Shown: positions 34,973-63,794 of the stretch, piece by piece
How the letters are laid out: each line of letters opens with the position of its first letter
Numbering within the stretch: the first letter of the stretch is position 1
Virus record (IMG/VR): IMGVR_UViG_3300045988_119718
Span: 188,611 to 252,610 of that record
Length of the DNA: 64,000 bases
Reading direction: 5' to 3' (one strand)
Source: a virus
The notes under the pieces: generated by a model
Told to the model about the DNA's origin: nothing
What the model saw: the letters and a program-made list of their open reading frames with translations, nothing else
Database searches by the model: none
Program-made: the position numbers and the translations under genes

Positions 34973-35114
34973 TTTAATTTCCTCCTTATAAAAGAAACAA
35001 TAATAAAATTAACTTAGACTAAATATCTAAGTCATAATAATAATATATAATTTTAAAGTTTATTAAAATATGCGAATTTTAGTTTAAAACAATAATATAA
35101 GTGAGGTGATTATA

Positions 35115-37209: not shown

Positions 37210-37252
37210 TCCTCATTATCATTTAAAAATTAAATGATTATAATACATAAGT

Positions 37253-37284
37253 ATATCTCTACTAGGATATCCTAGTAGAGATAT
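37253..37284. terminator. Bidirectional terminator palindrome ATATCTCTACTAGGATATCCTAGTAGAGATAT.
   Basis: 16-bp arms between convergent genes. Confidence 0.55.
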
Positions 37285-37289
37285 ATATT

Positions 37290-39893: not shown

Positions 39894-39942
39894 TTTTACA
39901 CCACCTAATAAAAAATAAAGAGTATACCATATGGTATACTCT

Positions 39943-41019
39943 TTAGAAGAACTCTAGATTTAATGGAGAATCTTTGAAATATGTATTGTTAATATATTGA
40001 ACTCCTTCTACATCATCTAGATCTTGTTTAATAAAACTTTCCTCTTTATATTCTGGTAGTAACTTGTAAAGTTTATATTGATAATTTAAATCTACACATT
40101 TGAAAGTTCTAATAAATTGTTCCTTTATTATAGGAACAGACTTTCTATTTTTGGATTTATAATAATCAGTACAAACATCATATAGTACTTCAGAATCATA
40201 TTCGCATCCTAAAGGGACTAGTTTAGATATAGATAGAGCAGTCGGATATGCACAAAGGCTTTTTATGTTACGCTTAGGTATACCTATTAAGGTCATCATA
40301 AAAGAAATCGTTTTTTGATTTAGATACTCTCTAATATTTTTCTTTTTTAATTCATAAATATATGCATGCAAAGAGTTAGTATGATTATAAGAATAAGTTC
40401 TATCTCTACCATCAGGAATACGTAATCTAAGGTCTTTTCTAATAACTACTGTATCTTTATTATTAATAGGTAATTGATACATTAGCTGAGAGTTAGAAAG
40501 GACTAAAGAAGGATTATCTCCTAATAATTTCTTTTGTATGATATTATGAATTATAACTGAAGATTCTACTGTACCTTCTTTAAGAAAAACATTAGGGAGA
40601 TATGGAACTAGTAATCTAACTAGTTTCATATTCTCCTCTACATTATCTTTAATCTTAACGTTAAACTTTATCCTAGTATTATACTCGTAATTATAAGTAG
40701 GTACAAATTGTGTATTATTAGTAGAATCATTACTAGAATATACTAGACATATATTAGTATAAACTTTATGTCTAGTATTAAAGTAGTTTCTTATATGAGC
40801 ACAGTAGTTTACTATGCAAGAGCATATATTAAAGAAATTCCCTATTCTAGTATACCTAAATGCTGTAACGAGAAATTGATATAAGTCTATATATACATTA
40901 ATAGTTTTAGTATTATTATCTCCATTAAATTCTCGTGGTATAATCTTTTGTAATTCTTTATAAGTAATGAATTCATTATATAAAACCATATCTAATGGGG
41001 TTTTAGTATCATATAGCAC
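39943..41019 (-). CDS. Hypothetical protein, 358 aa.
   Basis: ORF only. Confidence 0.55.
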   Translation of the reverse strand: MLYDTKTPLDMVLYNEFITYKELQKIIPREFNGDNNTKTINVYIDLYQFLVTAFRYTRIGNFFNICSCIVNYCAHIRNYFNTRHKVYTNICLVYSSNDSTNNTQFVPTYNYEYNTRIKFNVKIKDNVEENMKLVRLLVPYLPNVFLKEGTVESSVIIHNIIQKKLLGDNPSLVLSNSQLMYQLPINNKDTVVIRKDLRLRIPDGRDRTYSYNHTNSLHAYIYELKKKNIREYLNQKTISFMMTLIGIPKRNIKSLCAYPTALSISKLVPLGCEYDSEVLYDVCTDYYKSKNRKSVPIIKEQFIRTFKCVDLNYQYKLYKLLPEYKEESFIKQDLDDVEGVQYINNTYFKDSPLNLEFF

Positions 41020-41919: not shown

Positions 41920-42927
41920 TTAGCTCCTTTTTGGATAAATAATTTCATCATAATAGTGTTTAATATCTGGATGGAATATATACTGCCTTAAAGATAAACT
42001 CCAATATGGATAATAGCAATTACAATTATCGATTTCATCAATAATAACTATAGGTTGATTTATATTATATCTCCACCAACTATAAAAATCTTTATGAGAA
42101 TTTTTGTACTGTTTAAACTCTTCATAAATTTTAGTGTTGGAATCCATAAATAAATGATTAATTTCTTTTATAAACTGATTATAGTTTTCATCATTACTAT
42201 AATACAGTTTAGCTCTAGTTCTAATAGTAATAAAGTTTCTATCATTTATATTACTAATTTTATAACCAATCTTATAGATTTGATTATTATACTTCTCAGC
42301 AATATAATGAACTTTTTTAATGAAATCATTATTAGCTTTATTCAAATACTGTTGAGCTTTTCTTTTATAATGAAAATACTTATTGCAGTATTCAATAGCA
42401 GTCTTTACATTAGGTTCATGAAAGGCTTTTTCCCTAAATAATAAATTAGGAGAATCTGGTTCTTCTATATTCAAATATAAAGCTACTTTTGGATTTCTCA
42501 TAATAGCTTTAGTATATTGAACACATAAGTCAAATGAAGACTCCAATTTATTCACTGCACTAACTGCAATGTATGATCTACTATAGCTAAAAGCATCAAA
42601 AGTTTCATAATTTTCTACTAAAAATTCTAAATCGTCTAATTCTTTATCTTTAGCTTTAGATAATACAACATCATAAATATATCCACTGAATCTGTATACA
42701 AATCCTTCAGTTCTATAACTTTGGAAAGTGATATCAGGAGAGTATTTATATTTTACTTCAATATTATAAATATCTGGTAGGTAATAACTAAGTTTAATAA
42801 AGTATTTCAATACTTTATCTAAACCTAAATATTTACCTTTATACTCATTATATACTTTTTCTACTTCTGGCTGTAATTTACTATCAGTAGAAATTATATT
42901 TTTAATACGTTTTGTCATAGCAATCAC
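41920..42927 (-). CDS. Hypothetical protein, 335 aa.
   Basis: ORF only. Confidence 0.55.
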   Translation of the reverse strand: MIAMTKRIKNIISTDSKLQPEVEKVYNEYKGKYLGLDKVLKYFIKLSYYLPDIYNIEVKYKYSPDITFQSYRTEGFVYRFSGYIYDVVLSKAKDKELDDLEFLVENYETFDAFSYSRSYIAVSAVNKLESSFDLCVQYTKAIMRNPKVALYLNIEEPDSPNLLFREKAFHEPNVKTAIEYCNKYFHYKRKAQQYLNKANNDFIKKVHYIAEKYNNQIYKIGYKISNINDRNFITIRTRAKLYYSNDENYNQFIKEINHLFMDSNTKIYEEFKQYKNSHKDFYSWWRYNINQPIVIIDEIDNCNCYYPYWSLSLRQYIFHPDIKHYYDEIIYPKRS

Positions 42928-42998
42928 CTACTAAAATTTATAAAAAATATAAAGAGACACATATGTGTCTCTTTATATTTCATTGTACTAAAATACGA

Positions 42999-43934
42999 TT
43001 AGGCATTAACCAAGAAACCAAGCTTATTAGTATTAGTGGTTACACCATTTTCGTTGGCCACTTTCTGTACCCGTTCACCATTGATCTGAACTACGTTGAG
43101 CATGTAGTTATTGGTTCTAACCTGTTCAGCGAATACAGACGGTGCTTTCGGAACAACAAAGTTGAATTCGTATTCATACTTCTGATTGCTACCTTCTACA
43201 TTCTTACCATGAATCATGGAGAAGAATCTATTGATATCAATCGGAATCATTACTACGTTATACTGCTTCTGATAATAACCCATATTGTAAAGGTCGTTAA
43301 TAGTCCTTACATCATAAAGATTATCCCAGAGAATACCCTGTTTGCTATTATATGCTTCTTTGTTATTCATTGGATTTCTTCTAGGAACGAATCCTTCAAG
43401 GCATTTCTTAGCATCTGCTGTAATAGCGAGATACTTATAATCGTTTCTAGAATTCCATGCATTAATCCACCCACTCATCTTATCAGTGCTGGATTCTTTC
43501 ATGATCTTATCTTTTGGTTTAATAAACTTAACTTTGCCTTCTCCTTCTCTTCTGTCTTCAAAATAAAGGCATACATAGGACAAAGCACCATTCGGTTTAA
43601 GCTTATTATTTTCTTCTGCATTGATATAATTTCTAATGATATTAGATACCTGGAACAGAGATGCTTTTTCTTCATTAGAAGCTTTAGCATCAATGAAATG
43701 ATCAATATCATTCAGTCTTGCATTGAGGAACTCAGATGCAATCTGTGGAACTCTATCAACACGGACAAATCTTGCACCAACAAAATCATCAGTCATTGCT
43801 GCGAAGGTTTTGCAAATCTGTTTTACAAGCTTATTGGTGCTGATGAGCTTGTATTCAAGTTCTCCATTAAATTCGCTCTTTTCAAAAGTCACATTGAGAG
43901 CTTCGGTGTTTTTTGTTTCATTAATAGTAGCCAT
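42999..43934 (-). CDS. Hypothetical protein, 311 aa. It has visibly higher GC and a different codon usage, so it is either a highly expressed structural gene or an acquired gene.
   Basis: ORF with SD AAAGGAGGAAATAAC before the ATG. The antisense track ORF 42963..43973 is rejected. Confidence 0.6.
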   Translation of the reverse strand: MATINETKNTEALNVTFEKSEFNGELEYKLISTNKLVKQICKTFAAMTDDFVGARFVRVDRVPQIASEFLNARLNDIDHFIDAKASNEEKASLFQVSNIIRNYINAEENNKLKPNGALSYVCLYFEDRREGEGKVKFIKPKDKIMKESSTDKMSGWINAWNSRNDYKYLAITADAKKCLEGFVPRRNPMNNKEAYNSKQGILWDNLYDVRTINDLYNMGYYQKQYNVVMIPIDINRFFSMIHGKNVEGSNQKYEYEFNFVVPKAPSVFAEQVRTNNYMLNVVQINGERVQKVANENGVTTNTNKLGFLVNA

Positions 43935-44069
43935 GTTATTTCCTCCTTTAAAATAATTACATGGTGTGATTAAACAATCGTTTAATTTACAATATTGTTT
44001 AATCTGAAATTAAATATGACATTTTATAATGTCATAAATATAGTATGTATTTATTTTATTATTTACACA

Positions 44070-45059
44070 TCACGTTCTGTATACTACTCTACCAGTCTTA
44101 CAAAGTATGATGAATAAATCCCCATTATTGCTATTACGTATTAAATGGTATTTATATGTAAACGCTGTAATATCTATATCGTACCAATACTTAATTATCA
44201 TGTAATCATAAATAGTTCTAACGAAAGTACCTTTAACGATACTCATCATAGTTTCATGATCGAACGTATATAATGTATTAAGATCATTCTCTTTAATAAC
44301 AGGTTTAGCTTCTTTGATTGGATACTCGTCTATATTTAATCGTACATCCATACTTGGAATAAAACAATAAAGCTCTAAAAGCTGTTTAAGATTAGTAAGC
44401 TTAAAATCTATTTTTGATATTTTATAAATTTCTTTAAAAGTAGAAGTAATTAAATTATTGTACATTTGTAGTTTAGGCTTTAGCAAGTTTATTATACTAT
44501 CATAATAATCGTCTATATAAATTGCCAGTTTAATACTATCTTTAATCTTTACTTTTTCGTCTTCTTCCCATAATTTACTTTCATATGCATCATAGTTTTC
44601 ATCTTCATCTACAAATCTATCCATTATTTCATTGAGTTTATTTTGGATTGGTTTGTTAGGATCATCTAATATATGATAATTTTCTTTTATTAATGATTCT
44701 GTAGAATCTATCAATAAATTCAATCTAGTGAATATAGTACTATACATACTATAGCCATATTCATACTCTTCTGCTATTTGGGCTTCATCAGTATATACAG
44801 AATTCTTATTTAGATAAAGCTCTATAACCAAATCATCCATATTTCTAGAAGCACTATTAGCTTTAACTACAGTAAGATACATAAAAGCTGCTGGAATAAG
44901 TTTTCTATAACAATATTCAATATCGTTTACTTCCATCCATTTATATTTATTAAAAGTCTCAGAATAAACTTTAACTTTCTTTTTATATATACTATTTTTT
45001 ACATCAGTCATTATTCTAATGACCTCTTCATTATTAAACCATTTCTCTCCTAAAATCAT
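44070..45059 (-). CDS. Hypothetical protein, 329 aa.
   Basis: ORF only. Confidence 0.55.
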   Translation of the reverse strand: MILGEKWFNNEEVIRIMTDVKNSIYKKKVKVYSETFNKYKWMEVNDIEYCYRKLIPAAFMYLTVVKANSASRNMDDLVIELYLNKNSVYTDEAQIAEEYEYGYSMYSTIFTRLNLLIDSTESLIKENYHILDDPNKPIQNKLNEIMDRFVDEDENYDAYESKLWEEDEKVKIKDSIKLAIYIDDYYDSIINLLKPKLQMYNNLITSTFKEIYKISKIDFKLTNLKQLLELYCFIPSMDVRLNIDEYPIKEAKPVIKENDLNTLYTFDHETMMSIVKGTFVRTIYDYMIIKYWYDIDITAFTYKYHLIRNSNNGDLFIILCKTGRVVYRT

Positions 45060-45142
45060 TTTTAATCTCCTATATTATAATTAATTTGTACCAAGGTTGT
45101 AAAACCTTGGTACAATGATACTGTCATAAATATAATATATAG

Positions 45143-46849
45143 TTAAAAACCTTTTTTGAAATTAAGTATTCTTTTAATCCATTCTAATGTATGGTCTAAT
45201 GTAGAAGTTGGTATTCTAATTTTGTCATCATTAAATGGAGAATTTTGATATGATTTAATAATATCAAAGTTAGGGTCTTTTTTTAATACAATTTGACTAT
45301 ATTTAGTTATGTCATTAACTATTTTAGATCTAGCTTTTTCAGCTTTTCTTTTTTCTTCTATAGTAGTTTTTTTATCATGTATCTTTTCTTCCAGTTTAGT
45401 ATTTAAATACCATAGCTTACAAATACAATACTTCATTCCTACTATGTTATTATTCTTTTCATATATTTTTAAAGCTAAATGAGTTCTAGAGTATTCACCT
45501 TCAAAATCTATTTTTCTTCCTTTACTAATTAATAGATCTCCATCTTTATTGAATTCTACAGGAAATTCATTGGTAGTATTAGCTTCTGAAAATATATTAG
45601 CAGATTCTAATGATGACATATTATTTTTATCATTATAAAGATGATAAAGAATATGCAGCCCAAGGCAATCCTTATTAAATTTTCTATATTCTCCAGAAAA
45701 AACTTTGAATATAGAAATTGGTTCATTGAAATTATTTACTAATGATGCTAATAAATATTTGAGTGTTACTGTAGACGGATATCTATTTCCATCATGATTT
45801 TTAATCAATTCATGCCATTCTGGTAATCTTGCACAATATATATCCACGGTATCAGCTCTACTAGTTACATCATTATATGATATAATATCATTATATGGTA
45901 TAATGCGAGAGAAAGATACAGTTATTGTACTAAAAGATCTATTATCGATTATCCATAACCCCATGTTTGTTACGAAATCATTAAAACGTTCATCTTCATA
46001 GCGGCGGTTATCTTTTATTGATTCTTCTGTATCATTTACTGTATATATTCGTATATTACTATACATGCTGGATATAGCATTCTTAACTCTTTCATTTTGC
46101 TTAACTAAACTATAGTTAGATATAGGCAGAGAATAATTACAGCCTAAATTTAATAAAGCTTTATTTTTAATATCTTTATTTAATTTAGAATCATTAATTT
46201 CTTCTACTTTATCTTTCCATTGATTACTCAATGCTTTAAATTTATTAAAATCACCAGTTTCAAATCCTTCATTATAAGCTTTTTTCCATTTAGATACAAA
46301 AAGTGATTCTTTTAAAGGAAGTTTTACATCTTTAAAATATTTTTTATCATAGTACTCTATTTCTTTAGGAGTATAGTATGGATAAATGACTGATTCATCT
46401 ATAATGTCTGGGTTATCATTTAATATCTTACTTTCTATATTTGAGATATAGTCCTCAGATGGAGTAAATTCATTTATAGATTCTTGAATAGAAGCAGACA
46501 TATACTTTCTATAAAAATATCTATCTTTATCGAAGTTTATAGTAAAATACAAATCATCAACTTCTTGATCGACATCATGCTTATCTTTGTTAAACTGAAA
46601 TTCGTTATTATTAATACTATCTTCATCATAAAATTTATGAAGCATTATTTCATATCTATCTTGGTTAGTATTACCAAATAATTCTATACTCTTTTCATCA
46701 GAATCATTTTGCAAATCTTTATTCATTGCTATGAAATTATCCCAATCCATTTCTAAGTCTGAAATATTTTCATATTTAGGATACAGCAAAACTATATTGC
46801 TATCTAATCTCCAGTCTTTTACTTGCTTAGCTAATATATCAATATTCAT
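45143..46849 (-). CDS. Hypothetical protein, 568 aa.
   Basis: ORF only. Confidence 0.55.
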   Translation of the reverse strand: MNIDILAKQVKDWRLDSNIVLLYPKYENISDLEMDWDNFIAMNKDLQNDSDEKSIELFGNTNQDRYEIMLHKFYDEDSINNNEFQFNKDKHDVDQEVDDLYFTINFDKDRYFYRKYMSASIQESINEFTPSEDYISNIESKILNDNPDIIDESVIYPYYTPKEIEYYDKKYFKDVKLPLKESLFVSKWKKAYNEGFETGDFNKFKALSNQWKDKVEEINDSKLNKDIKNKALLNLGCNYSLPISNYSLVKQNERVKNAISSMYSNIRIYTVNDTEESIKDNRRYEDERFNDFVTNMGLWIIDNRSFSTITVSFSRIIPYNDIISYNDVTSRADTVDIYCARLPEWHELIKNHDGNRYPSTVTLKYLLASLVNNFNEPISIFKVFSGEYRKFNKDCLGLHILYHLYNDKNNMSSLESANIFSEANTTNEFPVEFNKDGDLLISKGRKIDFEGEYSRTHLALKIYEKNNNIVGMKYCICKLWYLNTKLEEKIHDKKTTIEEKRKAEKARSKIVNDITKYSQIVLKKDPNFDIIKSYQNSPFNDDKIRIPTSTLDHTLEWIKRILNFKKGF

Positions 46850-47669
46850 ATTTTAAATCATCTCCAATCACTATATCAGAAATTTCACTATAGTACTTGG
46901 TTCTTCTTAAAGTCTTTCTATTAGTAGCAAAATATCCTAATTTACTATCTTCCAAAATGACAATATCTTTAGATTGGTTTAGTAATGCTTTATAAGATTC
47001 ATCGTTAGAAACTATTTTATATTTATTAGCTATATTTGGTATAGACATAAAGATAGCTTCATTTAAAATACTATAAGCATCATTCTCTATAGTTCTTTTG
47101 ATTTCATCAAAATCTATAAGTTTAAAATCTTCATCGTAATCTATCTGGTCTTCGTCTAATAATTCTCTACCAGTTAATGCTTCATATATATATTCTAAAC
47201 TGTCAACTTTCTTATCTACAGAGTTAAGAATAGTCATAAGTTTCTTATTAGGGTCTTCACCCACATATTTATACATTTTAATCTTCTTATTCTTTAAATA
47301 AGAAGATGGATATTTTTTTAATACTTTATGTGGATTAGGCATAAGTATATTATCAGTTATAATATCATTCTGCACCCCATATCTAGGCTTAATGAAAGTA
47401 GGGTCTTGTACTTTAGATACAAATACATTACCATTAATTCCTACAGGAGGGTTTATACCAGCTAACCCCATCATTTCTAATTTAGATGAGAATATAGATT
47501 TATTTGTGGTTAAAGAAGATTTATTAAATCTTAAAAATTTATTATTTTGAGAATTCTTTCTAAATATTTTAGGTTTAGAAGAAAGTTTCTTTAATTTAGG
47601 TAATGATCTTCTAATAGGTTTATTCTTTACTTTAGTAGGATCAGTTATTCTCTTATCTTGTTCTATCAT
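46839..47669 (-). CDS. Hypothetical protein, 276 aa.
   Basis: ORF only. Confidence 0.5.
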   Translation of the reverse strand: MIEQDKRITDPTKVKNKPIRRSLPKLKKLSSKPKIFRKNSQNNKFLRFNKSSLTTNKSIFSSKLEMMGLAGINPPVGINGNVFVSKVQDPTFIKPRYGVQNDIITDNILMPNPHKVLKKYPSSYLKNKKIKMYKYVGEDPNKKLMTILNSVDKKVDSLEYIYEALTGRELLDEDQIDYDEDFKLIDFDEIKRTIENDAYSILNEAIFMSIPNIANKYKIVSNDESYKALLNQSKDIVILEDSKLGYFATNRKTLRRTKYYSEISDIVIGDDLKYEY

Positions 47670-47690
47670 TATTATATCATCTCTTTTCTA

Positions 47691-48626
47691 TTATTGTAAT
47701 TTGAATACATAATCTTCAAGCATAGGCTTTACTGTATTACTTCTATTCATTGTTTGATTTATTTCTTTTTCAAATGAGTCTTCATAGCTATTTAATGGAG
47801 ATAAATGAATACCATCTAATACAGCTTCATGCACTAGATTGGTATCTTCATTAACTCTAATTATAGCTTTTCTAGTTTCTTCATTATCGTTTAGCATTTG
47901 CATTTTAAGTTCATATAAAATCTCTATTAGTTGCTCAAACTGATTATTAGTTAATCGGATATAGTTATAAGTACCCATATTAGTAATCATTTCTTCTTTA
48001 GCTATTTGCTTTTCTCTATAGGTAGTCATAACTCTCTTATTAGGATTATCTCCACCATCTTTTACTTCTATTACCAGATTATATGGTACTATTAAAGCAT
48101 CAGTAATCCATTTATGATGCTCTCCTTTATATACGTAATCTATAGTAGGACCAGGCATTATGATATCATCTGGGTCAAACCCCATTATCTTATCTAAGAA
48201 TTCTAGCATTTTCTTTTCATATGAACCAGTATATTCTTTTAGCTTACCATTCTGAAAAGTATAAACACCAGAAATTCCTCTATTAGCTAACATCTTCTTT
48301 TGCTGATTAGCATCATTAAGAAGTGTAGTTTTACCATATACTTTCAACATATTTTTCTTATACATTTCTCTAAGCTTTTCTCTACACTTAGGGTTATTGC
48401 ATAATCTTTTATATTTATTAGTATTTTCATTCCATTCAGTAGGTTGCTTGCATACTACACATGTACCATGGTCTATATGATGGATAGAATTGAATAATAC
48501 TCTAGCAGCAGTATATCCTTCAGGGATTAAGTCCTCATGTTTTTTATCTATATGAGCTATTACTTTTTCTTTTGTATTTTTAAAGCTACAATATGGGCAT
48601 TTAACCTTTCTAGTATTAGAAGGCAT
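47691..48626 (-). CDS. Zn-finger protein with a possible PD-(D/E)xK nuclease-like core, 311 aa.
   Basis: N-terminal CPYC...H...H and CVVCK...C..C. TDALIVPYNLVIEVKDG resembles a D..E.K motif. Confidence 0.4.
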   Translation of the reverse strand: MPSNTRKVKCPYCSFKNTKEKVIAHIDKKHEDLIPEGYTAARVLFNSIHHIDHGTCVVCKQPTEWNENTNKYKRLCNNPKCREKLREMYKKNMLKVYGKTTLLNDANQQKKMLANRGISGVYTFQNGKLKEYTGSYEKKMLEFLDKIMGFDPDDIIMPGPTIDYVYKGEHHKWITDALIVPYNLVIEVKDGGDNPNKRVMTTYREKQIAKEEMITNMGTYNYIRLTNNQFEQLIEILYELKMQMLNDNEETRKAIIRVNEDTNLVHEAVLDGIHLSPLNSYEDSFEKEINQTMNRSNTVKPMLEDYVFKLQ

Positions 48627-48693
48627 TTTGGTTTCCTCCTTTTATATATGAAATAAATTACTTGTATGTCAAAAAATAAAAAAGATAGAATTT

Positions 48694-48718
48694 GGGTAAG
48701 AGCATTACGCTCTTACCC
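48694..48718 (-). terminator. Terminator hairpin GGGTAAGAGC-ATTAC-GCTCTTACCC downstream of the small-paralog array, with a T-rich run following on the minus strand.
   Basis: Perfect 10-bp stem. Confidence 0.5.
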
Positions 48719-48774
48719 AGTTTTAGGTTTATTAAATATAATTATTCTAGTAACTATAAAATAAACCTAGGAGT

Positions 48775-48945
48775 TTATACTTCGTTCCGAAGTTCATTCA
48801 GTGTCTTTCCACTTTGCTTAAGTAGAAGACTGAATGCGTACAGCTTGGACTCTTCGTCATTAGACTTACTACAATCTTTCATGATGCGACTATAGTAGTC
48901 TAAGAGTTTAAATCCGAACTCTTTTTTGCTTTCATTGATAACCAT
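48775..48945 (-). CDS. Small paralog A (56 aa): MVINESKKEFGFKLLDYYSRIMKDCSKSNDEESKLYAFSLLLKQSGKTLNELRNEV.
   Basis: Manual translation. The leader TATAACCTAGGAGGTGATTAGT-ATG is identical in all three paralogs. Confidence 0.5.
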   Translation of the reverse strand: MVINESKKEFGFKLLDYYSRIMKDCSKSNDEESKLYAFSLLLKQSGKTLNELRNEV

Positions 48946-49104
48946 ACTAATCACCTCCTAGGTTATAACGGCTTATATATGCTATATTTGGAGTATAGCA
49001 TATATAAGCAAAAGCATAATATATTTTAACCATACCCAATATTGGGTATGGTTAAAATCAATGTGGTAATTAAGAATAATTATAGGAATAACTATTAAAT
49101 AAAC

Positions 49105-49278
49105 CTAGGGTTGATTTAATACTATATCTTCTATAATTCCTTTATATCTGGGTATTATCTGATCAATTACCCATTGTTTAGATTCTCTATCACTTGAATC
49201 TTTTAACCCTATCATAATAGAATTATAGTAATCAAGCAATTTCAAACCAAACTCTTCTTTTGTTTCATTGATAACCAT
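49105..49278 (-). CDS. Small paralog B (57 aa): MVINETKEEFGLKLLDYYNSIMIGLKDSSDRESKQ...
   Basis: Manual translation with the same leader and SD. Confidence 0.5.
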   Translation of the reverse strand: MVINETKEEFGLKLLDYYNSIMIGLKDSSDRESKQWVIDQIIPRYKGIIEDIVLNQP

Positions 49279-49424
49279 ATAGTATCACCTCCTAGGTTAT
49301 AACAGGGTATGTAGCTAATATTTTAGGTATATTAGCTACATACCTAAAACTATTATACTAATTTCTATACCAGATATCTGGTATAGAAATTAATAACTAA
49401 AAGAACTAGTAAGTAAATCTAGGA

Positions 49425-49598
49425 TTACTTAGCAGAACAACATATATCATCAAGTATGTTTTTACTCTGTTTAAGTAATATGCTAAAAGCATAGTGCTTA
49501 GTTTTTTCATCCTTAGAATCATTATATTCGGTCATTAACTTTGTATAATGATTAAGAAGTTTCAAACCAAACTCCTCTTTAGTTTCATTGATAACCAT
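49425..49598 (-). CDS. Small paralog C (57 aa): MVINETKEEFGLKLLNHYTKLMTEYNDSKDEKTKHYAFSILLKQSKNILDDICCSAK.
   Basis: Track ORF 49425..49607 trimmed to ATG 49598 behind the SD AGGAGGTGA. Confidence 0.5.
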   Translation of the reverse strand: MVINETKEEFGLKLLNHYTKLMTEYNDSKDEKTKHYAFSILLKQSKNILDDICCSAK

Positions 49599-49794
49599 AC
49601 TAATCACCTCCTAGGTTATACAACGGCTTATAGTTAATATATTCCTAGTATATTAACTATAAGCAAAATGAAATTTATTTTAACTCTATCCAATATTGGA
49701 TAGAGTTAAATACTGTTTATCATAAATATGATATATAATCGAAAAAGAAAATAAATATTATCCCAGCCTATTATTAGGCTGGGATAATACCTTG

Positions 49795-50052
49795 TTATTT
49801 TTTAAAGGTATTGTATAAAGTTTTACACCATGCTCCAATACCTAATAATTCTGACATAGAAAGGAGCCATAAAAATTCTTTCCAACTATTCACGCAATAA
49901 TAAGAGCCATCATAAACGAATGTGATAGCTTTATAATACATGAAACCATAAATAGCTATTGCAGCTAGCAATACAGCTAAAGAACCAATGAGGGCATTCC
50001 TATCTTTATTAAAAAGTGCAGCTACAATTACGAATAAAGAAAGTAAAATCAT
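49795..50052 (-). CDS. Small membrane protein, 2 TM, 85 aa (holin-like candidate).
   Basis: Hydrophobic helices. Paired with a similar neighbour. Confidence 0.45.
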   Translation of the reverse strand: MILLSLFVIVAALFNKDRNALIGSLAVLLAAIAIYGFMYYKAITFVYDGSYYCVNSWKEFLWLLSMSELLGIGAWCKTLYNTFKK

Positions 50053-50066
50053 AATTCAATTCCTCC

Positions 50067-50312
50067 TTAATGCTTGAATACATAAATCAGATACACTACT
50101 TCTGTAGCTAATAAAGCTGTGAAGAGAGTATAAAAACCATAAATGAAAGTGACTGCATACCAGACTAGAAGTATGATTACACTAACGATGAAAAATGCTA
50201 AAGCAACTCTATCGTTGCTTAAACGAGTACCTGTATGGTAATCGTTTGTAGTTTTAGCGATAGCAATATCGCTAATAACTTCGTAAATAGTTAATAATAA
50301 ATACAGAATCAT
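50067..50312 (-). CDS. Small membrane protein, 2-3 TM, 81 aa.
   Basis: Hydrophobic helices. Confidence 0.45.
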   Translation of the reverse strand: MILYLLLTIYEVISDIAIAKTTNDYHTGTRLSNDRVALAFFIVSVIILLVWYAVTFIYGFYTLFTALLATEVVYLIYVFKH

Positions 50313-50439
50313 AATAATCGTCCTCCTTATAGAATGAAATGAAATACTTATATTCTATTCACTTCTATAATATATAAGCAAGATTCTTCAATATTACAAA
50401 GACTAACTTTATAGTAAACTCATGTAAGGTGGTGAATGT

Positions 50440-50868
50440 ATGGATATACAACGTGCTGCTAATAAAGAAATTATTAGTGATAAATATGCTGAATACTCTT
50501 TATCTATAACTGAATTTAATCGACCGGAAATAGCTACCGGTGCTAAAGCCATTATACAGAAAATCATTCAACTTATCTTTATGAATCCTGGTACGTATCC
50601 TACTAAACCTTATATGGGAATAGGGTTTATAAAAAAATATAGATACTCATTTATGGATAATATTGATGAGCTGAATGAAGAAGTTAAAGAACAAATAAGG
50701 ACATATTTACCTGAGTTTCAAACAGTAAATGTAGAGTTTAGTAATATGAATGAAAAAGTTAATCAGTTAGTTATTTTTATTACAGTGGATTATATGACGT
50801 ATTCTTTAGTATTAGATACTAGTAAGAAAACTTTAAGTTGGTTAAACAATGGGAGATATAATTTATAA
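50440..50868 (+). CDS. gp25/GPW-like baseplate wedge protein candidate, 142 aa.
   Basis: Size and the motif IIQLIFMNPGTYPTKPYMGIGF resemble the gp25-family core (..GER...PxFG..L). Confidence 0.35.
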   Translation: MDIQRAANKEIISDKYAEYSLSITEFNRPEIATGAKAIIQKIIQLIFMNPGTYPTKPYMGIGFIKKYRYSFMDNIDELNEEVKEQIRTYLPEFQTVNVEFSNMNEKVNQLVIFITVDYMTYSLVLDTSKKTLSWLNNGRYNL

Positions 50869-50886
50869 TATTTAAGGAGGATAAAC

Positions 50887-52590
50887 ATGGAAGATAGAAA
50901 TATTGCACCAAATACTTCTACTAAAAAAGAAAAAATATCTTTATCAGATATTGTTAGAGCTAAGGGTGTAGTAAAACCTCTTAGTGAACAAAACCTTGAT
51001 AACGTAACTAGAAGTGATGTTAAGGTTAAACAAGTAGAAGACCCAGCTATGAAAACTAGAGATGAATATCTCAAAAAGATTGATGATGGGTTTGATAGAG
51101 TAAAGAAGTCAATATATGAAGAACGTATTAAACCGTATATTGATGAACAGAAGCAAATAGCTGAAGAAAAAGAATTCGATGGAGAAATTGATGTTGCTAG
51201 TTTAGCAGATATTGCTGCATATAAAGCTCAGCATAAAGAAGCTAATAAACAACAAAAAGTTTCGATAGAGAATTTGCCAAAAGAAGAAGCACTTTCTACT
51301 ACTAACGAAGTAAAAGAAGAACCCAAATCTTCTACCCCAGATTTCTTAGATAAACCAATTAGCGAAATCGATTTTGATGAAAATGATTTCAACTATGATC
51401 TTATTTCTGATGAAGAAGATACATCTGATGAAGAATTAGATGAAGATGCTAATGATGAAAAGTTAGAAGATGAAGAAGATACTGAAGCTAAAGAAGTTGA
51501 ACAGAGAGAAAAAGAAAAAGAAGAACTTAGACAGAAAAGTGAAATTGTTAAACAGTTTATTACACCAGAATCTATAGATTTATCTGGATTTACAGAATCT
51601 AGCAAAACTATTAATATTAATACTGCTATTAATCATATTAGTGAAGTAGATCCTAAGTTTACTGAATCTAAATCAGTAGTATTATATAATACTGGTAAAA
51701 CTATTTCATTTACTCCTCTTACTGGTTCTGAAATTGTAGCTCTTTCTTCTGATAACTTTAGCTCTGAATTAGAACTGTATAAGAAATCATTCTATACTAT
51801 GTATACTCATGATGTATCTCCAGATAAACCAAAGAGCTTTATTGCATGGGCTAAAAGTATTGATGCTGGTGATTTAAATCAGTTATTCTTTGGTTTATAT
51901 AATGCTACATTTGGTGATTCTAACTATATCGGTTATCAATGCCCAAAATGTAATGCATTCTTTATGAAAAAATACTCAATCGATAAGATGTGGGATTTTG
52001 CTAAGGATGCTATAAAAGAACAGAAAGAAAGATATACTTTTATTAAAGAACATGGTGAATCAGAAGAGAACTTTAAATCTAAAATCAAAAGATACAATCT
52101 CTCCAAAGATTATATAATTCAGCTTAAACCAAGATCAATTTATAATTTGCTTGAATTAGATTATCTCGATAATGATTTTAAACGTAAATATAGTTCTATT
52201 GTACAAGCTATAGGATATATTGATAAAGTATTCTTTGTAGATTATTTGCACCATCAGCTTACACCAGTAGATTTTAAAGTAGATAGAGATTCTATCGTTA
52301 AAACTATTAAGAATAAATGTATTGTCCTTTATAAAGTATTATCTTCCATTACACCAGATAATTACTCTTTGTATAGTGGTATGATTTATAATTATTATAT
52401 TGAAGAAGCTAAATGCTTATCATTAATTAATTATCATATCCCAGCTACAGATTGCAATGAAAAAATTAAAGAAGGTGCTAATAAAGGTATGCTGTGCAAT
52501 GAGCATATCAAAGAATTAGAAATTAGCCCTTATAATATGCTTTTTACACGGCATCAGTTGGTAATGCAGAGCACCTTACACGTCGATTAA
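50887..52590 (+). CDS. Hypothetical protein with an acidic middle region, 567 aa.
   Basis: ORF with SD AAGGAGG. Confidence 0.6.
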   Translation: MEDRNIAPNTSTKKEKISLSDIVRAKGVVKPLSEQNLDNVTRSDVKVKQVEDPAMKTRDEYLKKIDDGFDRVKKSIYEERIKPYIDEQKQIAEEKEFDGEIDVASLADIAAYKAQHKEANKQQKVSIENLPKEEALSTTNEVKEEPKSSTPDFLDKPISEIDFDENDFNYDLISDEEDTSDEELDEDANDEKLEDEEDTEAKEVEQREKEKEELRQKSEIVKQFITPESIDLSGFTESSKTININTAINHISEVDPKFTESKSVVLYNTGKTISFTPLTGSEIVALSSDNFSSELELYKKSFYTMYTHDVSPDKPKSFIAWAKSIDAGDLNQLFFGLYNATFGDSNYIGYQCPKCNAFFMKKYSIDKMWDFAKDAIKEQKERYTFIKEHGESEENFKSKIKRYNLSKDYIIQLKPRSIYNLLELDYLDNDFKRKYSSIVQAIGYIDKVFFVDYLHHQLTPVDFKVDRDSIVKTIKNKCIVLYKVLSSITPDNYSLYSGMIYNYYIEEAKCLSLINYHIPATDCNEKIKEGANKGMLCNEHIKELEISPYNMLFTRHQLVMQSTLHVD

Positions 52591-52595
52591 TTGCT

Positions 52596-52886
52596 TTGCA
52601 GAATGCCTTTAGAAGAGGGTTTGATTTAATCGCCGCTAAAGACCAACCAATGGGATTTATTCATACTTTATACTATTATCAAGTAGAAAAATCCATAGAA
52701 GATGCTAAAAAAGAGGAAATGCGAATTGCTAAAGAAAAACAACAGCAAGCTGTAAATGCCAGATTAAATAGAAGGCAACAATTAATGGGTCGAAGACCTG
52801 TTAATAATTCTCCTGCTGTTAATGATTCTTATAGTGATTCTGCAAATATCGACGCTGAAGACTTAGAAGATGCTTTCGGTATATAA
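52596..52886 (+). CDS. Small hypothetical protein (weak TTG start; the frame is open from 52536).
   Basis: ORF with no convincing SD. Confidence 0.3.
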   Translation: MQNAFRRGFDLIAAKDQPMGFIHTLYYYQVEKSIEDAKKEEMRIAKEKQQQAVNARLNRRQQLMGRRPVNNSPAVNDSYSDSANIDAEDLEDAFGI

Positions 52887-52961
52887 TCCTAATATAAATT
52901 TTTGGAGGAATTGAAATTGACTTTAATTCAATTTGCTGAGAAAATAAATGTTAGGAGTAAT

Positions 52962-53243
52962 ATGAGTATATTTTGTAATCACTTTGAAGAGATTATAGTT
53001 CTATATAAAGTATTATCATACTATATAGATATCTATAATCTCTCAGTGGTTATAAGCACCAAACAATTATCCAATAATACAGTTAATCTTAAAGCTAATA
53101 TTTCTTGTACTAATATAGAAGTATTGAAAGAATTAATAGAAAGATTCAATAATAGTTCTTTTATTATATTTGAAAGAAATCTTAAATGTAAGATAAACTT
53201 ATTAAAGAATAATACTATAAATATCATTATTACTAAAAGATAG
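52962..53243 (+). CDS. Small hypothetical protein (start ambiguous: ATG 52962 behind TAGGAG, or TTG 52902).
   Basis: ORF only. Confidence 0.3.
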   Translation: MSIFCNHFEEIIVLYKVLSYYIDIYNLSVVISTKQLSNNTVNLKANISCTNIEVLKELIERFNNSSFIIFERNLKCKINLLKNNTINIIITKR

Positions 53244-53329
53244 AGTCTATATAGGCTCTATCTCTATTTTAGTTATTTAGGGATAACTATGACATTATTA
53301 TAATTTATAAGAAAAGGAGGTAATTAAAG

Positions 53330-54865
53330 TTGGCTGAACAAAAAGACTTCTTATCTATTAATCCTTTAGATATAGAAAAGTTTATTAAGGTTAATGAGCT
53401 TAAAGAAGTTACAAATCCTATATTCTTTTCTGCTAATAATGTACCTACATCAGATGGGTTATTATCCAATGAAATATTTGGTATTACAATGAATTCACGC
53501 TCTAATGTATTTGCATATATTAATCTAGGGGGTAAATACTTTATACACCCTATGATATATGCAATATGGAAGAAAGTAGACCGTAATATAGTGAAGTGCG
53601 TTCACTCTGTTTCTAATTTTAGATTATCTAATGAAGGCTATTTGGAAGAAAACGAAGACGGAGAAACAGGTATAGATTTCTTAAGAAAGAATATATCTAA
53701 AATCCATTTTAAACAATCAGATTCTTTCGTAAGAAAAGCTAATATAGCTTTCTTAGAGAAATTTAAAAATATTATGTTTATAAAGAACTATATAGTTATT
53801 CCAGCTTACTATAGAGATGTATCTACGGATGGAGGCAAAGTAGGTGTAGGCGATATAAACAAATTATATCAATACTTACTTATGGCTTGTAATTCTTTAA
53901 AAGAAATGGATCAATTAGGTATTACTACTTATGATGCTACTGTAGGAAGAATACAAGATTTATTATTAGAGATATATAGTTATTTTACTAAAGGTGAAGT
54001 ACAAGGTAAAACTACAGGTGCTGGTATAGCGGGTAAATTTGGTATATTACAGCATGGTGTGCAATCTAAGACAACAGACTATTCATCTAGATTAGTCATC
54101 TCTGCTCCTAATTTAAAAGTAGAAAGTATGGATGACTTACTTACTGATGTAGATCATGTAGCTTTACCATTAGCATCTGCTATTACCAATTTCTATCCTT
54201 TTGTATTAGCATATGTAAGACAGTTCTTTATGAATGAGTATAATAATAACCCTATAAGAAATGTATACTCTTCATCTACTAATACTAAAGAATTTAAAAA
54301 AGTAAAACTTAAAGATTATAGAATCAGTTTCTCTGATGATGTATTGAAAGAAGAAATAGATAGATTTATTCATGGTATTGCAAATAGATTTAGGCCTATA
54401 GAATTACCTACAGAAGATCCAAAATATCCTGTGGTATATATTAACTTTAAAGGTAGACATGCTACAGAAGAAGAAGTTACTAACGATTTAGAAAAAGAAG
54501 ATGATAATAGAGTACCTATTACTGAAAGAGTAATGACATGGTGTGATTTATTATACATGGCAGCTATAGAAGTAACAGCTGATAAAATGGTATTGATAAC
54601 AAGATATCCTATTGATAGTTGTTATAACCAATTCCCATGTGGTATTAATGTATCTTCTACAATTAAGACTGAACCTATGGTAATTAACCATAAGCTGTAT
54701 AAACATTATCCATATATTAGAACTGAAGATATTGGTAAGAATACTACTAATAAATTCATAGATACTTTAAACATCAGTAATGTTTATTTAGGTTCTATAG
54801 GTGGAGATTATAGAAAACCCATTGTAATCTCGTTAATCAACCTACTAAACTGCGGGGAACTCTTT
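53330..54865 (+). CDS. Multisubunit RNA polymerase beta-prime subunit, N-terminal part, exon 1 (up to ..NLLNCGELF). The track ORF continues to a stop at 54892 inside the intron.
   Basis: GKFGILQHGVQSKTTDYSSRLVISAPNLKV matches beta-prime [28 protein letters not shown]. IPAYYRDVSTDGGKVGVGDINKLYQYLLMACNSL matches [47 protein letters not shown]. Confidence 0.6.
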
Positions 54866-55724
54866 AAAAACCTAATAACCAAGCTATTATAGTAATATAA
54901 TAGTGGCGATTAGTAACGGAATCGGTATGGTAAAATCATTAGGTATTTAGACAATCAAACGCAACCAAGCTTCCATTCTAATTACTAGTATGGAAGAAGG
55001 CTCATCGACTATCGAACAGCAATTATTAAATTAATTGAACTTAGTAGAGTAGGGTTAATAACTGGCCCGAAAGAGTAGGCTATTATAAATTGCCATACAA
55101 TATTATAAAATACTTATTGGAGGATTTTATAATATGATAAAAATTTTAAATATTTTAGATATAAAACCAAATATGTACTCTATAAATGAAAACGGTATAG
55201 TTAAAAATATTAGAAGAAATAAAATATTATCAACACAATTATTCGTAAACGGGTATTTTACTGTTCATTTACAAACTACAACTAACGGAAGGCATTCATA
55301 TTACATCCATCAACTAGTAGCATATGCATTTTTACCCAAACCCAATTCAAAGGTAATAGTAAATCATAAAGATTTAAATAAGCAGAATAATAATGTAGAT
55401 AATTTAGAGTGGACTACTTATTCTATAAATAATAAATGGGAAAATAGAAATAATAATCCGCCTATTATAAAAACCAGAGGGTTGTGGAGTAAAGGCGAAA
55501 CTACATGTGGTGAAAATAATGGAATGCATATATATTCAAACGAAACGATAGAGTTGATTTGTAAAGCATTAGAAAAAGGGCTTAACTATACCGATACTTT
55601 AAAATATGCTAAATTACCTATAACAAATAACAATAGATATTTAGTTAGTCATATAAATAGAGGAAGTAGATGGAAATGTATATCTAAAAAATATAAATTG
55701 GCATATAATAGATAATATAGTCAG
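54866..55724 (+). mobile_element. Group I-like intron (about 859 nt) interrupting the RNAP beta-prime gene and carrying an HNH homing-endonuclease ORF. P7 is formed by GACUAU (55007-55012) and AUAGUC (55717-55722). Boundaries are approximate to within a few nt.
   Basis: Exon 1 ends in U, the intron ends in G (55724), and S-like AAUAUAGUC and R-like GACUA elements are present. Exon 2 starts exactly at the codon boundary encoding NSTDLDGDQ. Confidence 0.55.
55134..55715 (+). CDS. HNH homing endonuclease (I-HmuI/NUMOD-like), 193 aa, intron-encoded.
   Basis: NGYFTVHL...GRHSYYIHQLVAYAFLPKPNSKVIVNHKDLNKQNNNVDNLEW matches the HNH_3 pattern. SD GGAGG. Confidence 0.65.
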   Translation: MIKILNILDIKPNMYSINENGIVKNIRRNKILSTQLFVNGYFTVHLQTTTNGRHSYYIHQLVAYAFLPKPNSKVIVNHKDLNKQNNNVDNLEWTTYSINNKWENRNNNPPIIKTRGLWSKGETTCGENNGMHIYSNETIELICKALEKGLNYTDTLKYAKLPITNNNRYLVSHINRGSRWKCISKKYKLAYNR

Positions 55725-55946: not shown

Positions 55947-55970
55947 TTAGTATATAAGTATATACAAATT

Positions 55971-55994
55971 GGTAATAGGCATATGCCTATTACC
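55971..55994. terminator. Perfect 24-bp palindrome GGTAATAGGCATATGCCTATTACC followed by a T-rich tract.
   Basis: Lies just after the beta-prime exon-2 stop and is likely a terminator or operator. Confidence 0.45.
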
Positions 55995-56025
55995 AATTAT
56001 ATTTTATTATAAAGGAGGAGTAATT

Positions 56026-57043: not shown

Positions 57044-57118
57044 GGTCCTATAGTTCAACGGTTAGAACGCATGCCTTATAAGCGTGTCATGAAGTTTCGA
57101 CTACTTCTAGGACCACCA
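57044..57118 (+). tRNA. tRNA-Ile (anticodon UAU) with encoded CCA.
   Basis: Manual cloverleaf: acceptor GGTCCTA/TAGGACC, anticodon arm CATGC-CTTATAA-GCGTG, T-loop TTCGACT. Confidence 0.6.
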
Positions 57119-57138
57119 TTTTATTATATACTTACAAC

Positions 57139-57226
57139 GGATGTATGGCCGAGTGGTTTAAGGCACCAGTCTTGAAAACTGGCATAGAGAAATCTATCTG
57201 GGGTTCAAATCCCTATGCATCCGCCA
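57139..57226 (+). tRNA. tRNA-Ser (anticodon UGA), long variable arm, with CCA.
   Basis: Acceptor GGATGTA/TGCATCC, anticodon arm CCAGT-CTTGAAA-ACTGG, discriminator G. Confidence 0.65.
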
Positions 57227-57233
57227 TTTTTAT

Positions 57234-57309
57234 TCCTGAATAGCTCAGTCGGTAGAGCGTGTGACTGTTAATCACAATGTCGTAGGTTCGATCCCTACTT
57301 CAGGAGCCA
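57234..57309 (+). tRNA. tRNA-Asn (anticodon GUU) with CCA.
   Basis: Acceptor TCCTGAA/TTCAGGA, D-arm AGCTCAGTCGGTAGAGC, anticodon loop CTGTTAA, T-loop TTCGATC. Confidence 0.7.
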
Positions 57310-57310
57310 T

Positions 57311-57385
57311 CGGGGAATAGTACAAAGGTCAGTATGCTTGGCTTTGACCCAAGAGATTTGAGTTCGATTCTCAATTCCCCTGCCA
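57311..57385 (+). tRNA. tRNA-Gln (anticodon UUG) with CCA. There is a 1-72 mismatch.
   Basis: Anticodon arm CTTGG-CTTTGAC-CCAAG, T-arm TTGAG-TTCGATT-CTCAA, discriminator G. Confidence 0.55.
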
Positions 57386-58530: not shown

Positions 58531-58621
58531 AGCTATAGCTCTAGTCCATATGGACTAGAGCATATTATTTTCCTAAAACATTGTTATAATACTCTAGTAT
58601 AAAAGAGAGGTGATATTTAAA

Positions 58622-61749: not shown

Positions 61750-61944
61750 TTTTATGATTTAATTACTATCATCGAATATTCGATGATAGTAATTATTAGA
61801 GTTTGAAAAGATATATTAAATTATTTTTTATAAAAAAAAATAATAACTATATTATAAAATATAAGCATTTTATTTTATAATAATTCATCCCCATGCTTAT
61901 AAAATAAAATAATAAAAATATTTCTTTAAATGGAGGAATAATAA

Positions 61945-63056: not shown

Positions 63057-63794
63057 TTATGAAATATAGCAATCATAATTATGATTATTATTTAATACGC
63101 AATGAAGTCTATTATTATTATTATTAATTAATGTAAATTCATTAATATTCGCTATAGTATTGTTACTAAATTTCATATTGGTGAAAAGTTTTTTATTAAA
63201 TGATAATGGTAATTTGTTAATAATAATTGATAATTTATTAGCAAATTTTTTTCGATCGTTCTTAGTCCAATAATGATTAATAATCGAATTTGTTAGTGGG
63301 TCATTAAAATCAATAAATTTATTTAAATTATTTTGCTCAGCATTAGTATTAATAACAGCTCTATTACTATTATCGATAATATAATCATTGTTATAGTAAA
63401 AAATATTATTATTATACATAATAGTTTTTTTATTAAAGTCAATTAATAATGAATCATTATTGATACTAAATGCAATAGTATTATCATTATCATCCTCAAT
63501 TACATTATTAATAGAAATATTTTCCAATAGTGTTTTTATCATATCATTGTTATGAATAATTTTAATAAGTTTTAAAAGATTGGTTTTACCATAGCGAATA
63601 TTCATTTTTATTAATAAAGAAAATTGCTTATTTTTAAAACAATTCATATTAATTAAAGAATTTGCTATGCGATTTTTTAAAAAATCATATGATACGCTAA
63701 TTTCATTGTAATTACATAATTTCATAATAGGTTCCTCCTTTAGGAAATAAAGTCTAATAATGATAATTAGACTAAATATAATAATGAATCTCAT
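63057..63794 (-). CDS. Hypothetical Asn/Ile-rich protein, 245 aa.
   Basis: ORF with SD AAAGGAGGAA upstream on the minus strand. Confidence 0.5.
   Translation of the reverse strand: MRFIIIFSLIIIIRLYFLKEEPIMKLCNYNEISVSYDFLKNRIANSLINMNCFKNKQFSLLIKMNIRYGKTNLLKLIKIIHNNDMIKTLLENISINNVIEDDNDNTIAFSINNDSLLIDFNKKTIMYNNNIFYYNNDYIIDNSNRAVINTNAEQNNLNKFIDFNDPLTNSIINHYWTKNDRKKFANKLSIIINKLPLSFNKKLFTNMKFSNNTIANINEFTLINNNNNRLHCVLNNNHNYDCYIS

Follow-up and report, generated by a model that had tools for sequence, protein, structure and literature searches.

A stretch of 64,000 nucleotides (nt) from a virus (IMG/VR record IMGVR_UViG_3300045988_119718, positions 188,611 to 252,610 of that record), here called the window, carries on its minus strand at 48775-49598 an array of three small paralogous genes in the order C, B, A, as read from the sequence and from the listing of its open reading frames (ORFs). 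Before each gene stand two perfect hairpins, H2 (a palindrome of 16-18 base pairs, bp) and then H1 (stem of 16 bp, loop of 7 nt). The comparison of related sequences firmly shows that these hairpins are conserved as structures in a fixed geometry, and equally firmly that the cassettes of the array are gained, lost, reordered, and hybridized via a conserved leader and a conserved tail. The explanation we favor, with a little more belief than doubt, is that, in the RNA, the hairpins serve as modules insulating and stabilizing each cistron, that the repeated leader drives a shuffling like that of the PeSL (promoter-early stem-loop) cassettes of T4-type phages, and that the whole forms an insulated early array.

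A previous, sequence-only reading of this DNA had described three minus-strand genes of 56-57 amino acids (aa) with a common N-terminus, a common leader, and paired palindromes, and every one of these features lies where it was placed. The coordinates given there did not take in the promoter motif (49720-49737) or the flanking terminators (49753-49792 and 48693-48719), and the promoter, the insulating terminators, and the shuffling of cassettes among relatives were all missed. The parts of the array, in window coordinates and in the order of reading along the minus strand, are these:

49753-49792, minus strand: upstream terminator, a stem of 18 pairs, 6 of them GC, followed by a T-rich tail, which ends the unit of two membrane-protein genes
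49720-49737, minus strand: P1, a motif like the AR9-type early promoter of the virion RNA polymerase (RNAP), TATATATCATATTTATGA; the predicted start is the G of TATG
49679-49710, minus strand: H2-alpha, a perfect 16+16 palindrome with an ATAT center
49626-49664, minus strand: H1-alpha, stem of 16 bp and loop of 7 nt, its end 10 nt short of CCTAGGAGG
49599-49620, minus strand: leader of gene C, TATAACCTAGGAGGTGATTAGT, which includes the extended Shine-Dalgarno (SD) sequence AGGAGGTGA
49598-49425, minus strand: gene C, type C, 57 aa, ending in HYAFSILLKQSKNILDDICCSAK, with a ratio of nonsynonymous to synonymous polymorphism (pN/pS) of 0.03-0.12
49418-49423, minus strand: tail of gene C, CCTAGA, which opens the 3' homology block CCTAG(G/A)TTTA
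49359-49392 (extended 49356-49395), minus strand: H2-beta, 17 perfect pairs (20 at 95%) with a GATATC center
49306-49344, minus strand: H1-beta, stem of 16 bp and loop of 7 nt
49279-49301, minus strand: leader of gene B, TATAACCTAGGAGGTGATACTAT
49278-49105, minus strand: gene B, type B, 57 aa, ending in QWVIDQIIPRYKGIIEDIVLNQP
49104-49109, minus strand: tail of gene B, CCTAGG, which overlaps the gene end (the terminal G of the TAG stop is common to both) and opens the 3' homology block
49023-49058, minus strand: H2-gamma, a perfect 18+18 palindrome with an ATAT center
49009-49028, minus strand: P2-gamma, a second early-promoter-like box, TAAAATATATTAT-GCTTTT-G, of uncertain status; the predicted start is the first base of H1-gamma
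48971-49009, minus strand: H1-gamma, stem of 16 bp and loop of 7 nt
48946-48967, minus strand: leader of gene A, the same sequence as the leader of gene C
48945-48775, minus strand: gene A, type A, 56 aa, ending in LYAFSLLLKQSGKTLNELRNEV
48762-48771, minus strand: tail of gene A, CTCCTAGGTT
48693-48719, minus strand: closing terminator, 12 pairs, 6 of them GC, with a T-rich tail, kept in relatives

Each cistron is introduced by the same succession of modules, namely H2, an AU-rich spacer of 13-17 nt, H1, a gap of 8-10 nt, and the extended SD. The three linkers (alpha, beta, and gamma) are unrelated in sequence, while all three preserve the lengths of stem and loop and the spacing from the SD. 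The palindromes are not peculiar to the window. Among about 45 related loci with about 100 linkers, they are kept in all of the related arrays, with many compensated changes. For example, H2-alpha exists in five perfectly paired variants (CTCTATCC, CTCCATCC, CTCAACCC, CTCAATCC, and CTTCATCC), the arms of H1-alpha read GCTTATAG/CTATAAGC in some relatives and GCTCATAG/CTATGAGC in others, and H2-gamma has the compensated variants CATACCC and CATACTC (CATACTC/GAGTATG) as well as TTTAAACC/GGTTTAAA. H2-beta is identical in 33 related linkers. Since the whole-linker MAFFT alignment had placed the beta type out of register, the hairpins were re-aligned separately for the counting of pairs. Both sides have changed in 13 of the 16 pairs of H2 and in 8 of the 16 pairs of H1, and the cells remain paired at 91.5% in H2 (73.6% when shuffled) and at 98.4% in H1 (84.4% when shuffled), values that none of 500 shuffles reached in either case. 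Sliding the 3' partner by 1-3 columns makes the pairing collapse in H1 and H2 alike. The RNA folds of the linkers have z-scores of -5.9, -7.2, and -7.9. In the predicted folds, most of the SD stays free of pairing in the alpha and beta linkers, and in the gamma linker its 3' end and the start codon are paired with an upstream segment. A search of Rfam 15 returned 14 matches, all far below the gathering thresholds.

The repeat unit of about 330 bp is a diverged tandem triplication, and identity along it is a mosaic. Between copies it amounts to the following:

hairpin region: 48-62%
leader: 83-100%
codons 1-15: 78-91%
rest of the gene: 41-60%

The 15-nt leader AACCTAGGAGGTGAT is identical at all three genes and has 3 exact copies in the 64 kb where 0.11 would be expected. 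The extended SD occurs in the window at genes A, B, and C only (3 sites, 0.28 expected), although plain AGGAGG is common there, with 30 sites. The ATG that lies 8 nt past AGGAGG is the real start codon, and not the GTG starts inside the SD that the ORF program offers for two of the genes. The encoded proteins share the N-terminus MVINE(S/T)K(K/E)EFG(L/F)KLL and are 44-50% identical overall.

The same blocks that are most alike between copies are the places where cassettes have been exchanged. Related arrays hold 1-4 cassettes in varying order, with hybrids and leaderless remnants among them, and a fourth gene type, D, takes part as well. The arrangements found are these:

C-B-A: this window, L017, and L025
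C-B-D followed by a leaderless A remnant: the commonest
C-B-D; C-D; C-A-D; C-A; B-A; A alone: other arrays
D, then a 5'-truncated B remnant, then C and A
a D/B hybrid gene, then A

Frameshifted copies occur in L012 and in P0059 and P0061. The N-terminal variants ETKEE, ESKKE, and ETRKE reassort independently of the C-terminal type, and the order of linkers is constrained, with alpha always first, beta always after C, and gamma after B or, in one case, A. A chimeric linker, joining H2 of one type to H1 of another, was found in none of the approximately 100 linkers, which places the crossovers in the leader and N-terminal block and in the CCTAG(G/A)TTTA tail; none falls inside a hairpin or between the two of a pair. 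The process is a homology-driven birth and death of cassettes. In the leaderless remnants (L020:3175-3400, L149:1990-2200, and L002:4175-4345), the 3' flank of gene D runs straight into A or B; a deletion at a GGTGAT/GGTTAT microhomology has removed the linker, the SD, and the start codon, and frameshifts have accumulated since.

The tail of gene A calls for separate mention. CTCCTAGGTT (48762-48771) is a 10-nt exact complement of a segment of the gene's own leader, AACCTAGGAG (48955-48964), that includes part of the SD, and this complementarity is kept in all A-terminal arrays. Pairing between the 5' and 3' untranslated regions (UTRs), as in hbs or icaR, is possible. A long-range pairing CCUAGGUU/AACCUAGG closing each linker was considered and rejected; the tails of C and D deviate (CCTAGA and CTTAGA), and the invariant leader offers no compensation. 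Avoidance of CCTAGG through restriction was likewise dropped; all 5 of the window's sites lie in the array (48766-49615), but only 1.3 would be expected outside it under a maximal-order Markov model.

Transcription of the array can be placed from motifs. In phage AR9, the early promoter used by the virion RNAP has been defined experimentally as AAATATATATTAT-(6N)-G(+1) (PMC5312081). The annotated AR9 early promoters read AAATATATATTAT-ATAATT-GA, P1 reads GATTATATATCAT-ATTTAT-GA, and the best site of the window reads AACTATATATTAT-ATTTAT-GA, a likeness that is a sequence match to the AR9 consensus only. From a promoter of this type, transcription begins at the G early in infection and does not depend on protein synthesis. 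P1 lies between the upstream terminator and H2-alpha, and its motif is kept 5' of the first hairpin in every related locus. The 18-mer TATATATTATATTTATGA, with up to 2 mismatches, has 5 sites in the window where 0.40 would be expected, a number reached in none of 100 shuffles, and all five are on the minus strand, intergenic, and 5' of minus-strand genes. A hairpin follows within about 10 nt at four of the five (P1 included) and starts at +2 in two, and at the promoter-like site at 44049 a hairpin spans the predicted start. The other four sites, all on the minus strand (45124-45141, 44032-44049, 35032-35049, and 23811-23828), probably mark early transcription units of the window. A scan for sigma-70 promoters gave 9 sites in the window, fewer than in shuffled sequence (14.4), and a scan of IMG/VR with a 17-nt promoter word was uninformative, this AT-rich word matching unrelated contigs.

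Canonical terminators with T-rich tails stand only at the two ends of the array, and the upstream one is kept in relatives with compensated stem changes (CCCAGCC, CTCCAGCC, and CCCCAGCC). Given terminators on both sides and a P1 motif kept in relatives, we infer a single insulated early operon, P1-[H2 H1]-C-[H2 H1]-B-[H2 H1]-A-terminator. The strong expression signals on which the sequence-only reading had remarked are thus reinforced by a conserved AR9-type early promoter motif just upstream. Under the explanation favored here, P1 (49737-49720) would transcribe C, then B, then A. H2 would serve as the 3' hairpin of the upstream cistron, either as an attenuator or as a barrier to exonucleases, and H1 together with the strong SD would be a 5' stabilizer and a leader that standardizes the translation of the downstream cistron. 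The AU-rich spacer would be the place of processing or, in the gamma linker, of secondary initiation. The varied arrays are, by comparison of the loci, the outcome of unequal homologous recombination in the leader and first 15 or so codons and in the CCTAG(G/A)TTTA tail.

How the stems stay perfect is a separate question, and here the loops are informative. The loops of H1-alpha are found in both orientations among relatives (CTCGGAA/TTCCGAG and CTAGGAA/TTCCTAG, exact reverse complements), and those of H1-beta read either GTCTCAAG or CTTGAGAC, again exact reverse complements. L011-L014 are 98.7-99.2% identical over 6 kb, yet their loop orientation is split 2:2. The inversion of a loop between perfect arms is the signature of template switching during replication, which can create and perfect stems, compensated changes included, in one event (PMC8794818). 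The window as a whole has 32 perfect hairpins with a stem of at least 11 (0-3 in second-order Markov simulations of the whole window), and 6 of them sit in the 0.9 kb of the array; elsewhere, examples lie at 8166-8195, 20042-20069, 32120-32165, 37252-37285, 39916-39945, 42945-42980, 55967-55998, 58538-58561, 61760-61795, and 63775-63814. As many as 29 of the 32 are intergenic, many of them 3-13 nt after a stop codon, and 15 are full palindromes, 14 of these with an ATAT center. Near-perfect hairpins number only 5. H2 belongs to this genome-wide class of palindromes, and the 16 bp/7 nt type of H1 is unique to the array. The excess suggests either a phage-specific signal for termination or processing or an active process that perfects palindromes. 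Given the exact loop inversions and the genome-wide perfect palindromes, the stems are kept perfect partly by selection on structure and partly by template switching within the palindrome. The earlier argument that covariation preserving symmetry speaks for function therefore claims too much: the covariation is strong, but the loop inversions and the genome-wide palindromes show that copying at the DNA level also makes compensated arms.

Several observations weigh against the explanation favored here. The promoter, the operon structure, and the RNA processing are all deduced from motifs. P1 has a C at a core position, and in AR9 one deviation from the consensus can abolish the activity of the early promoter (PMC5312081). 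The sequences do not tell a role of the hairpins in RNA from one in DNA; among the single-sided changes, 5 leave a G.U pair on the sense strand, 5 leave one only on the antisense strand, and 3 are non-wobble, so that there is no strand bias. The two lineage-fixed mismatches point in opposite directions, and a strand test on the imperfect hairpins of the genome gave one informative case only. A function in RNA needs neither perfect stems nor palindromic loop centers. H1 and H2 are AT-rich, unlike intrinsic terminators with their G+C-rich stem and a U-tract right behind it (only H2-beta passes a terminator scan, marginally), and the 5' T-run and 3' A-run of H2 are the reverse of what an intrinsic terminator has.

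The nearest competitor, unlikely in our judgment, holds that these are true PeSL-type units, each linker consisting of a terminator (H2) and an early promoter of its own, so that the cassettes are transcribed independently and H1 is the 5'-terminal hairpin of the transcript. In the gamma spacer, P2-gamma matches the AR9 consensus at 11 of 13 positions (2 mismatches), and transcription from it is predicted to begin at the first base of H1-gamma; the beta spacer has a TATAAT 7 nt before H1-beta; and H2-beta, as said, gets through a terminator-like scan. Two other promoter-like sites have a hairpin at +2 and one more has a hairpin spanning the start, and the PeSL architecture itself is documented (PMC2839356). 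Matches of the P2-gamma class are not enriched in the window, however (14 found, 13.4 expected), and the alpha and beta spacers fit the consensus poorly. The spacer between H2 and H1 is also the least conserved part of the linker among relatives; it reads ATTATG, ATTGTG, ATTATA, ATTGTA, or AATTAC. H2 has no 3' U-tract, and canonical terminators are confined to the ends of the array.

It is also conceivable, and we think quite improbable, that the hairpins work as DNA, either as cruciform or single-strand sites (attC-like, for cassette exchange, replication, or packaging) or as operators for dimeric proteins, possibly the small proteins themselves. All of the arms pair by Watson-Crick rules alone, and G.U is not preferred on the transcribed strand; the palindrome of H2 runs through its center, and the loop flips show that the strands pair with themselves as DNA. 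The proportion of 32 perfect to only 5 near-perfect hairpins in the window fits such a role too, as does the joint inheritance of gene type and 3' linker (C with beta, B with gamma). Yet the crossovers avoid the hairpins in all of the approximately 100 linkers, the neighboring ORFs scanned have no match to an integrase or recombinase, and the stems are perfect, without the extrahelical bases or the GTTRRRY core of attC. One sequence-specific binder cannot serve three unrelated sequences, and the proteins are predicted to be neutral to acidic two-helix hairpins with no match to a DNA-binding fold. Operator sites, which the sequence-only reading had offered beside hairpins, are thus unlikely, the three linkers having unrelated sequences and only structure and geometry in common; the variant in which each protein binds its own palindrome is not favored for the same reasons. 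A further possibility is that the palindromes have no function and are by-products of template switching in an AT-rich jumbo phage, harmless in intergenic DNA. The genome-wide excess over simulation, the inversion of loops on a short time scale, and the capacity of one switching event to create and perfect stems (PMC8794818) all speak for it, but we rate it as very improbable. Hairpins scattered by such an accident would hardly be so intergenic, with many just past a stop codon, nor would unrelated linkers keep the same geometry (H1 of 16 bp/7 nt, H2 of 16-18 bp, their spacing, and 8-10 nt to the SD), and orthologous hairpins persist in all sampled relatives. A long shot, finally, is that the hairpins are DNA sites actively folded and flipped by the replication or recombination machinery, as integrase-independent attC-like boundaries or as flip-flop switches. 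If so, the jumbo phages of this clade would own a dedicated generator of diversity for small early proteins, and the four protein types would co-diversify with their 3' linkers (C with beta, B with gamma).

Of the systems already described, the PeSL cassettes of T4-type phages (Arbiol, Comeau and Krisch 2010, PMC2839356; Comeau et al. 2014, PMC4122927) come closest to the array in the way they work. In both, small nonessential orphan ORFs fill a hyperplastic gap between core genes, the transcription units are insulated, stable stem-loops recur in the intergenic regions (joined in PeSL to an early promoter, of which the array keeps a motif in the first linker only), and homologous recombination between repeats has deleted, inserted, or replaced cassettes among close relatives. 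Another mark of PeSL cassettes is the formation of excised mini-circles during infection. The array nevertheless falls outside the PeSL family because of its promoter type, its internal linkers without a conserved promoter, its two perfect hairpins, and its homology in the leader and N-terminus. It belongs to an AR9/PBS1-like jumbo phage and has a promoter motif of the virion-RNAP type, not the strong sigma-70-like promoter for host RNAP that PeSL units carry. Each linker has two long perfect hairpins rather than one G/C-rich stem-loop, and as a composite only the alpha linker joins the promoter motif to H2 and H1, the beta and gamma linkers having hairpins with weak, unconserved boxes. What recurs as homologous sequence is not the promoter and stem-loop but the SD leader, the first 15 or so codons, and the 3' tail, and the cassettes are paralogues of one family.

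Other comparisons capture single aspects of the array. The RNase III sites of the T7 early region are intercistronic hairpins of a phage early operon, and here, too, stable hairpins stand between the cistrons of a putative early polycistronic unit. The resemblance is architectural only, since the stems here are perfect, without the typical internal loops, and the hairpins come in pairs. The 5' stem-loop and extended SD of each ORF are reminiscent of the 5' stabilizers of Firmicutes, such as STAB-SD, the polypurine stabilizer of SP82, and the strong SD of hbs (PMC3997798; PMC5737220), and the 10-nt complementarity between the tail and the SD of gene A recalls the 5'/3'-UTR pairing of hbs and icaR. 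Integrons share with the array tandem small ORFs that are each followed by a palindromic element of varying sequence and constant structure, a variable number and order of cassettes, and a promoter (here a putative one) at one end that serves the whole. Integrons have an adjacent IntI tyrosine recombinase with attI and Pc; in contrast, no integrase occurs among the ORFs scanned near the array, the breakpoints lie away from the hairpins, and each ORF is a paralogue of the others and brings its own SD. An attC site has extrahelical bases and R''/L''-L'/R' cores (GTTRRRY) in an imperfect palindrome, whereas the stems here are perfect. Morons, the insulated accessory transcription units of phages, are similar in their layout of terminator, promoter, genes, and terminator between conserved genes, and the syntenic site of AR9 has no array, but the array is internally repetitive and shaped by the homology-driven birth and death of its copies, and not one acquired gene.

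The small proteins themselves form a clade-restricted orphan family. A profile search gave 63 clusters of homologues with lengths of 42-70 aa; almost all fall within 55-58 aa, and the rest are truncated or frameshifted copies. All of the clusters come from metagenomic contigs of up to 267 kb, some of them labeled pig gut. When 1.84 billion representative proteins were searched with a profile and no filter, 9 matched, 8 of them family members; the ninth is marginal (E = 8e-4) and covers 33 residues of a 998-aa protein. No homologue was found in cultured phages by tblastn of one small protein against GenBank phages, and a distant-mode blastn of the locus against GenBank phages had no match. The sequence-only reading had recognized no known family, and this is borne out by searches of Pfam, PHROGs, NCBIfam, PADLOC, sequence profiles of the Protein Data Bank (PDB), and, with Foldseek, PDB and BFVD, none of which gave a significant match. 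The family falls into four types, A, B, C, and D, in which the N-terminal helix is common and the second helix differs. Since pN/pS within types is 0.12-0.32 over the codons from 16 to the end, that is, outside the N-terminus, the genes are real and under purifying selection, and the conservation of the ORFs as protein is confirmed across the 63 clusters. The AlphaFold (AF2) model is a two-helix hairpin (helices 7-26 and 31-55, mean predicted local distance difference test score 76) and suggests a conserved first helix and a diversified second one; the structure prediction proposed earlier thus yielded a fold, and no structural match to go with it. That the proteins are early and host-directed would follow solely from the inferred promoter, and a role in host takeover or anti-defense, as had been proposed from the sequence, is a guess.

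The surroundings place the array in the genome of a large phage. The window has a G+C content of 28% and carries an ORF of 2767 aa, four tRNAs, and a split multisubunit RNAP subunit, whose counterparts in Listeria phage LPJP1, Staphylococcus phage Madawaska, and Bacillus phage AR9 share 30-33% identity with it. By these jumbo-phage hallmarks and this level of identity, it comes from a distant AR9/PBS1-like jumbo phage of gut metagenomes. The gene 3' of the array (47691-48626, minus strand) is conserved and encodes an endonuclease fused to an N-terminal zinc finger (ZnF) and is about 40% identical to g233 of AR9. In AR9, g233 directly adjoins the baseplate-wedge gene g232, divergently oriented, and here the g232 homologue lies at 50440-50868, with two small membrane-protein ORFs and the array in between. 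As the core genes that flank it adjoin each other in AR9, the array is accessory DNA that occupies a hyperplastic gap.

The neighbors vary as well. The two genes between the baseplate-wedge homologue and the array (49795-50052 and 50067-50312, minus strand) encode small predicted membrane proteins of 85 and 81 aa. The syntenic site of AR9 has nothing in their place, and in some relatives one of the two is altered (variants of 77-87 aa) or missing, with a single gene in L016, L018, and L019. The ZnF-endonuclease has a short form of 311 aa, as in the window, and a long form of 558-564 aa (e.g., L002:5162-6856) among close relatives, the two being 92% identical over the first 311 or so residues; the extra C-terminal part of about 250 aa in the long form has no family match. 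Directly 5' of the SD of this gene, after the array terminator, is a sigma-A-like promoter (TTGACA-18 nt-TATATA; 48650-48690, minus strand). No match to an integrase or recombinase was found in the ORFs scanned on both sides of the array, which are those at 41920-54892 except the small ones at 52591-53329. The tRNA cluster lies at 57044-57385 on the plus strand (Ile-TAT, Ser-TGA, Asn-GTT, and Gln-TTG).

For the study of hairpins in phage genomes, the array carries a warning: the "covariation" of these stems comes with exact loop inversions, and template switching, besides selection on RNA, yields compensated stems. The P1-type motif is a likely consensus for the early promoters of this phage clade, and the family of 57-aa putative early proteins, with its four types, supplies candidates for screens of host takeover or counter-defense. 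More broadly, the PeSL idea of shuffling regulatory cassettes would be extended from T4-type phages to uncultivated AR9-like jumbo phages of the gut that use their own RNA polymerases.

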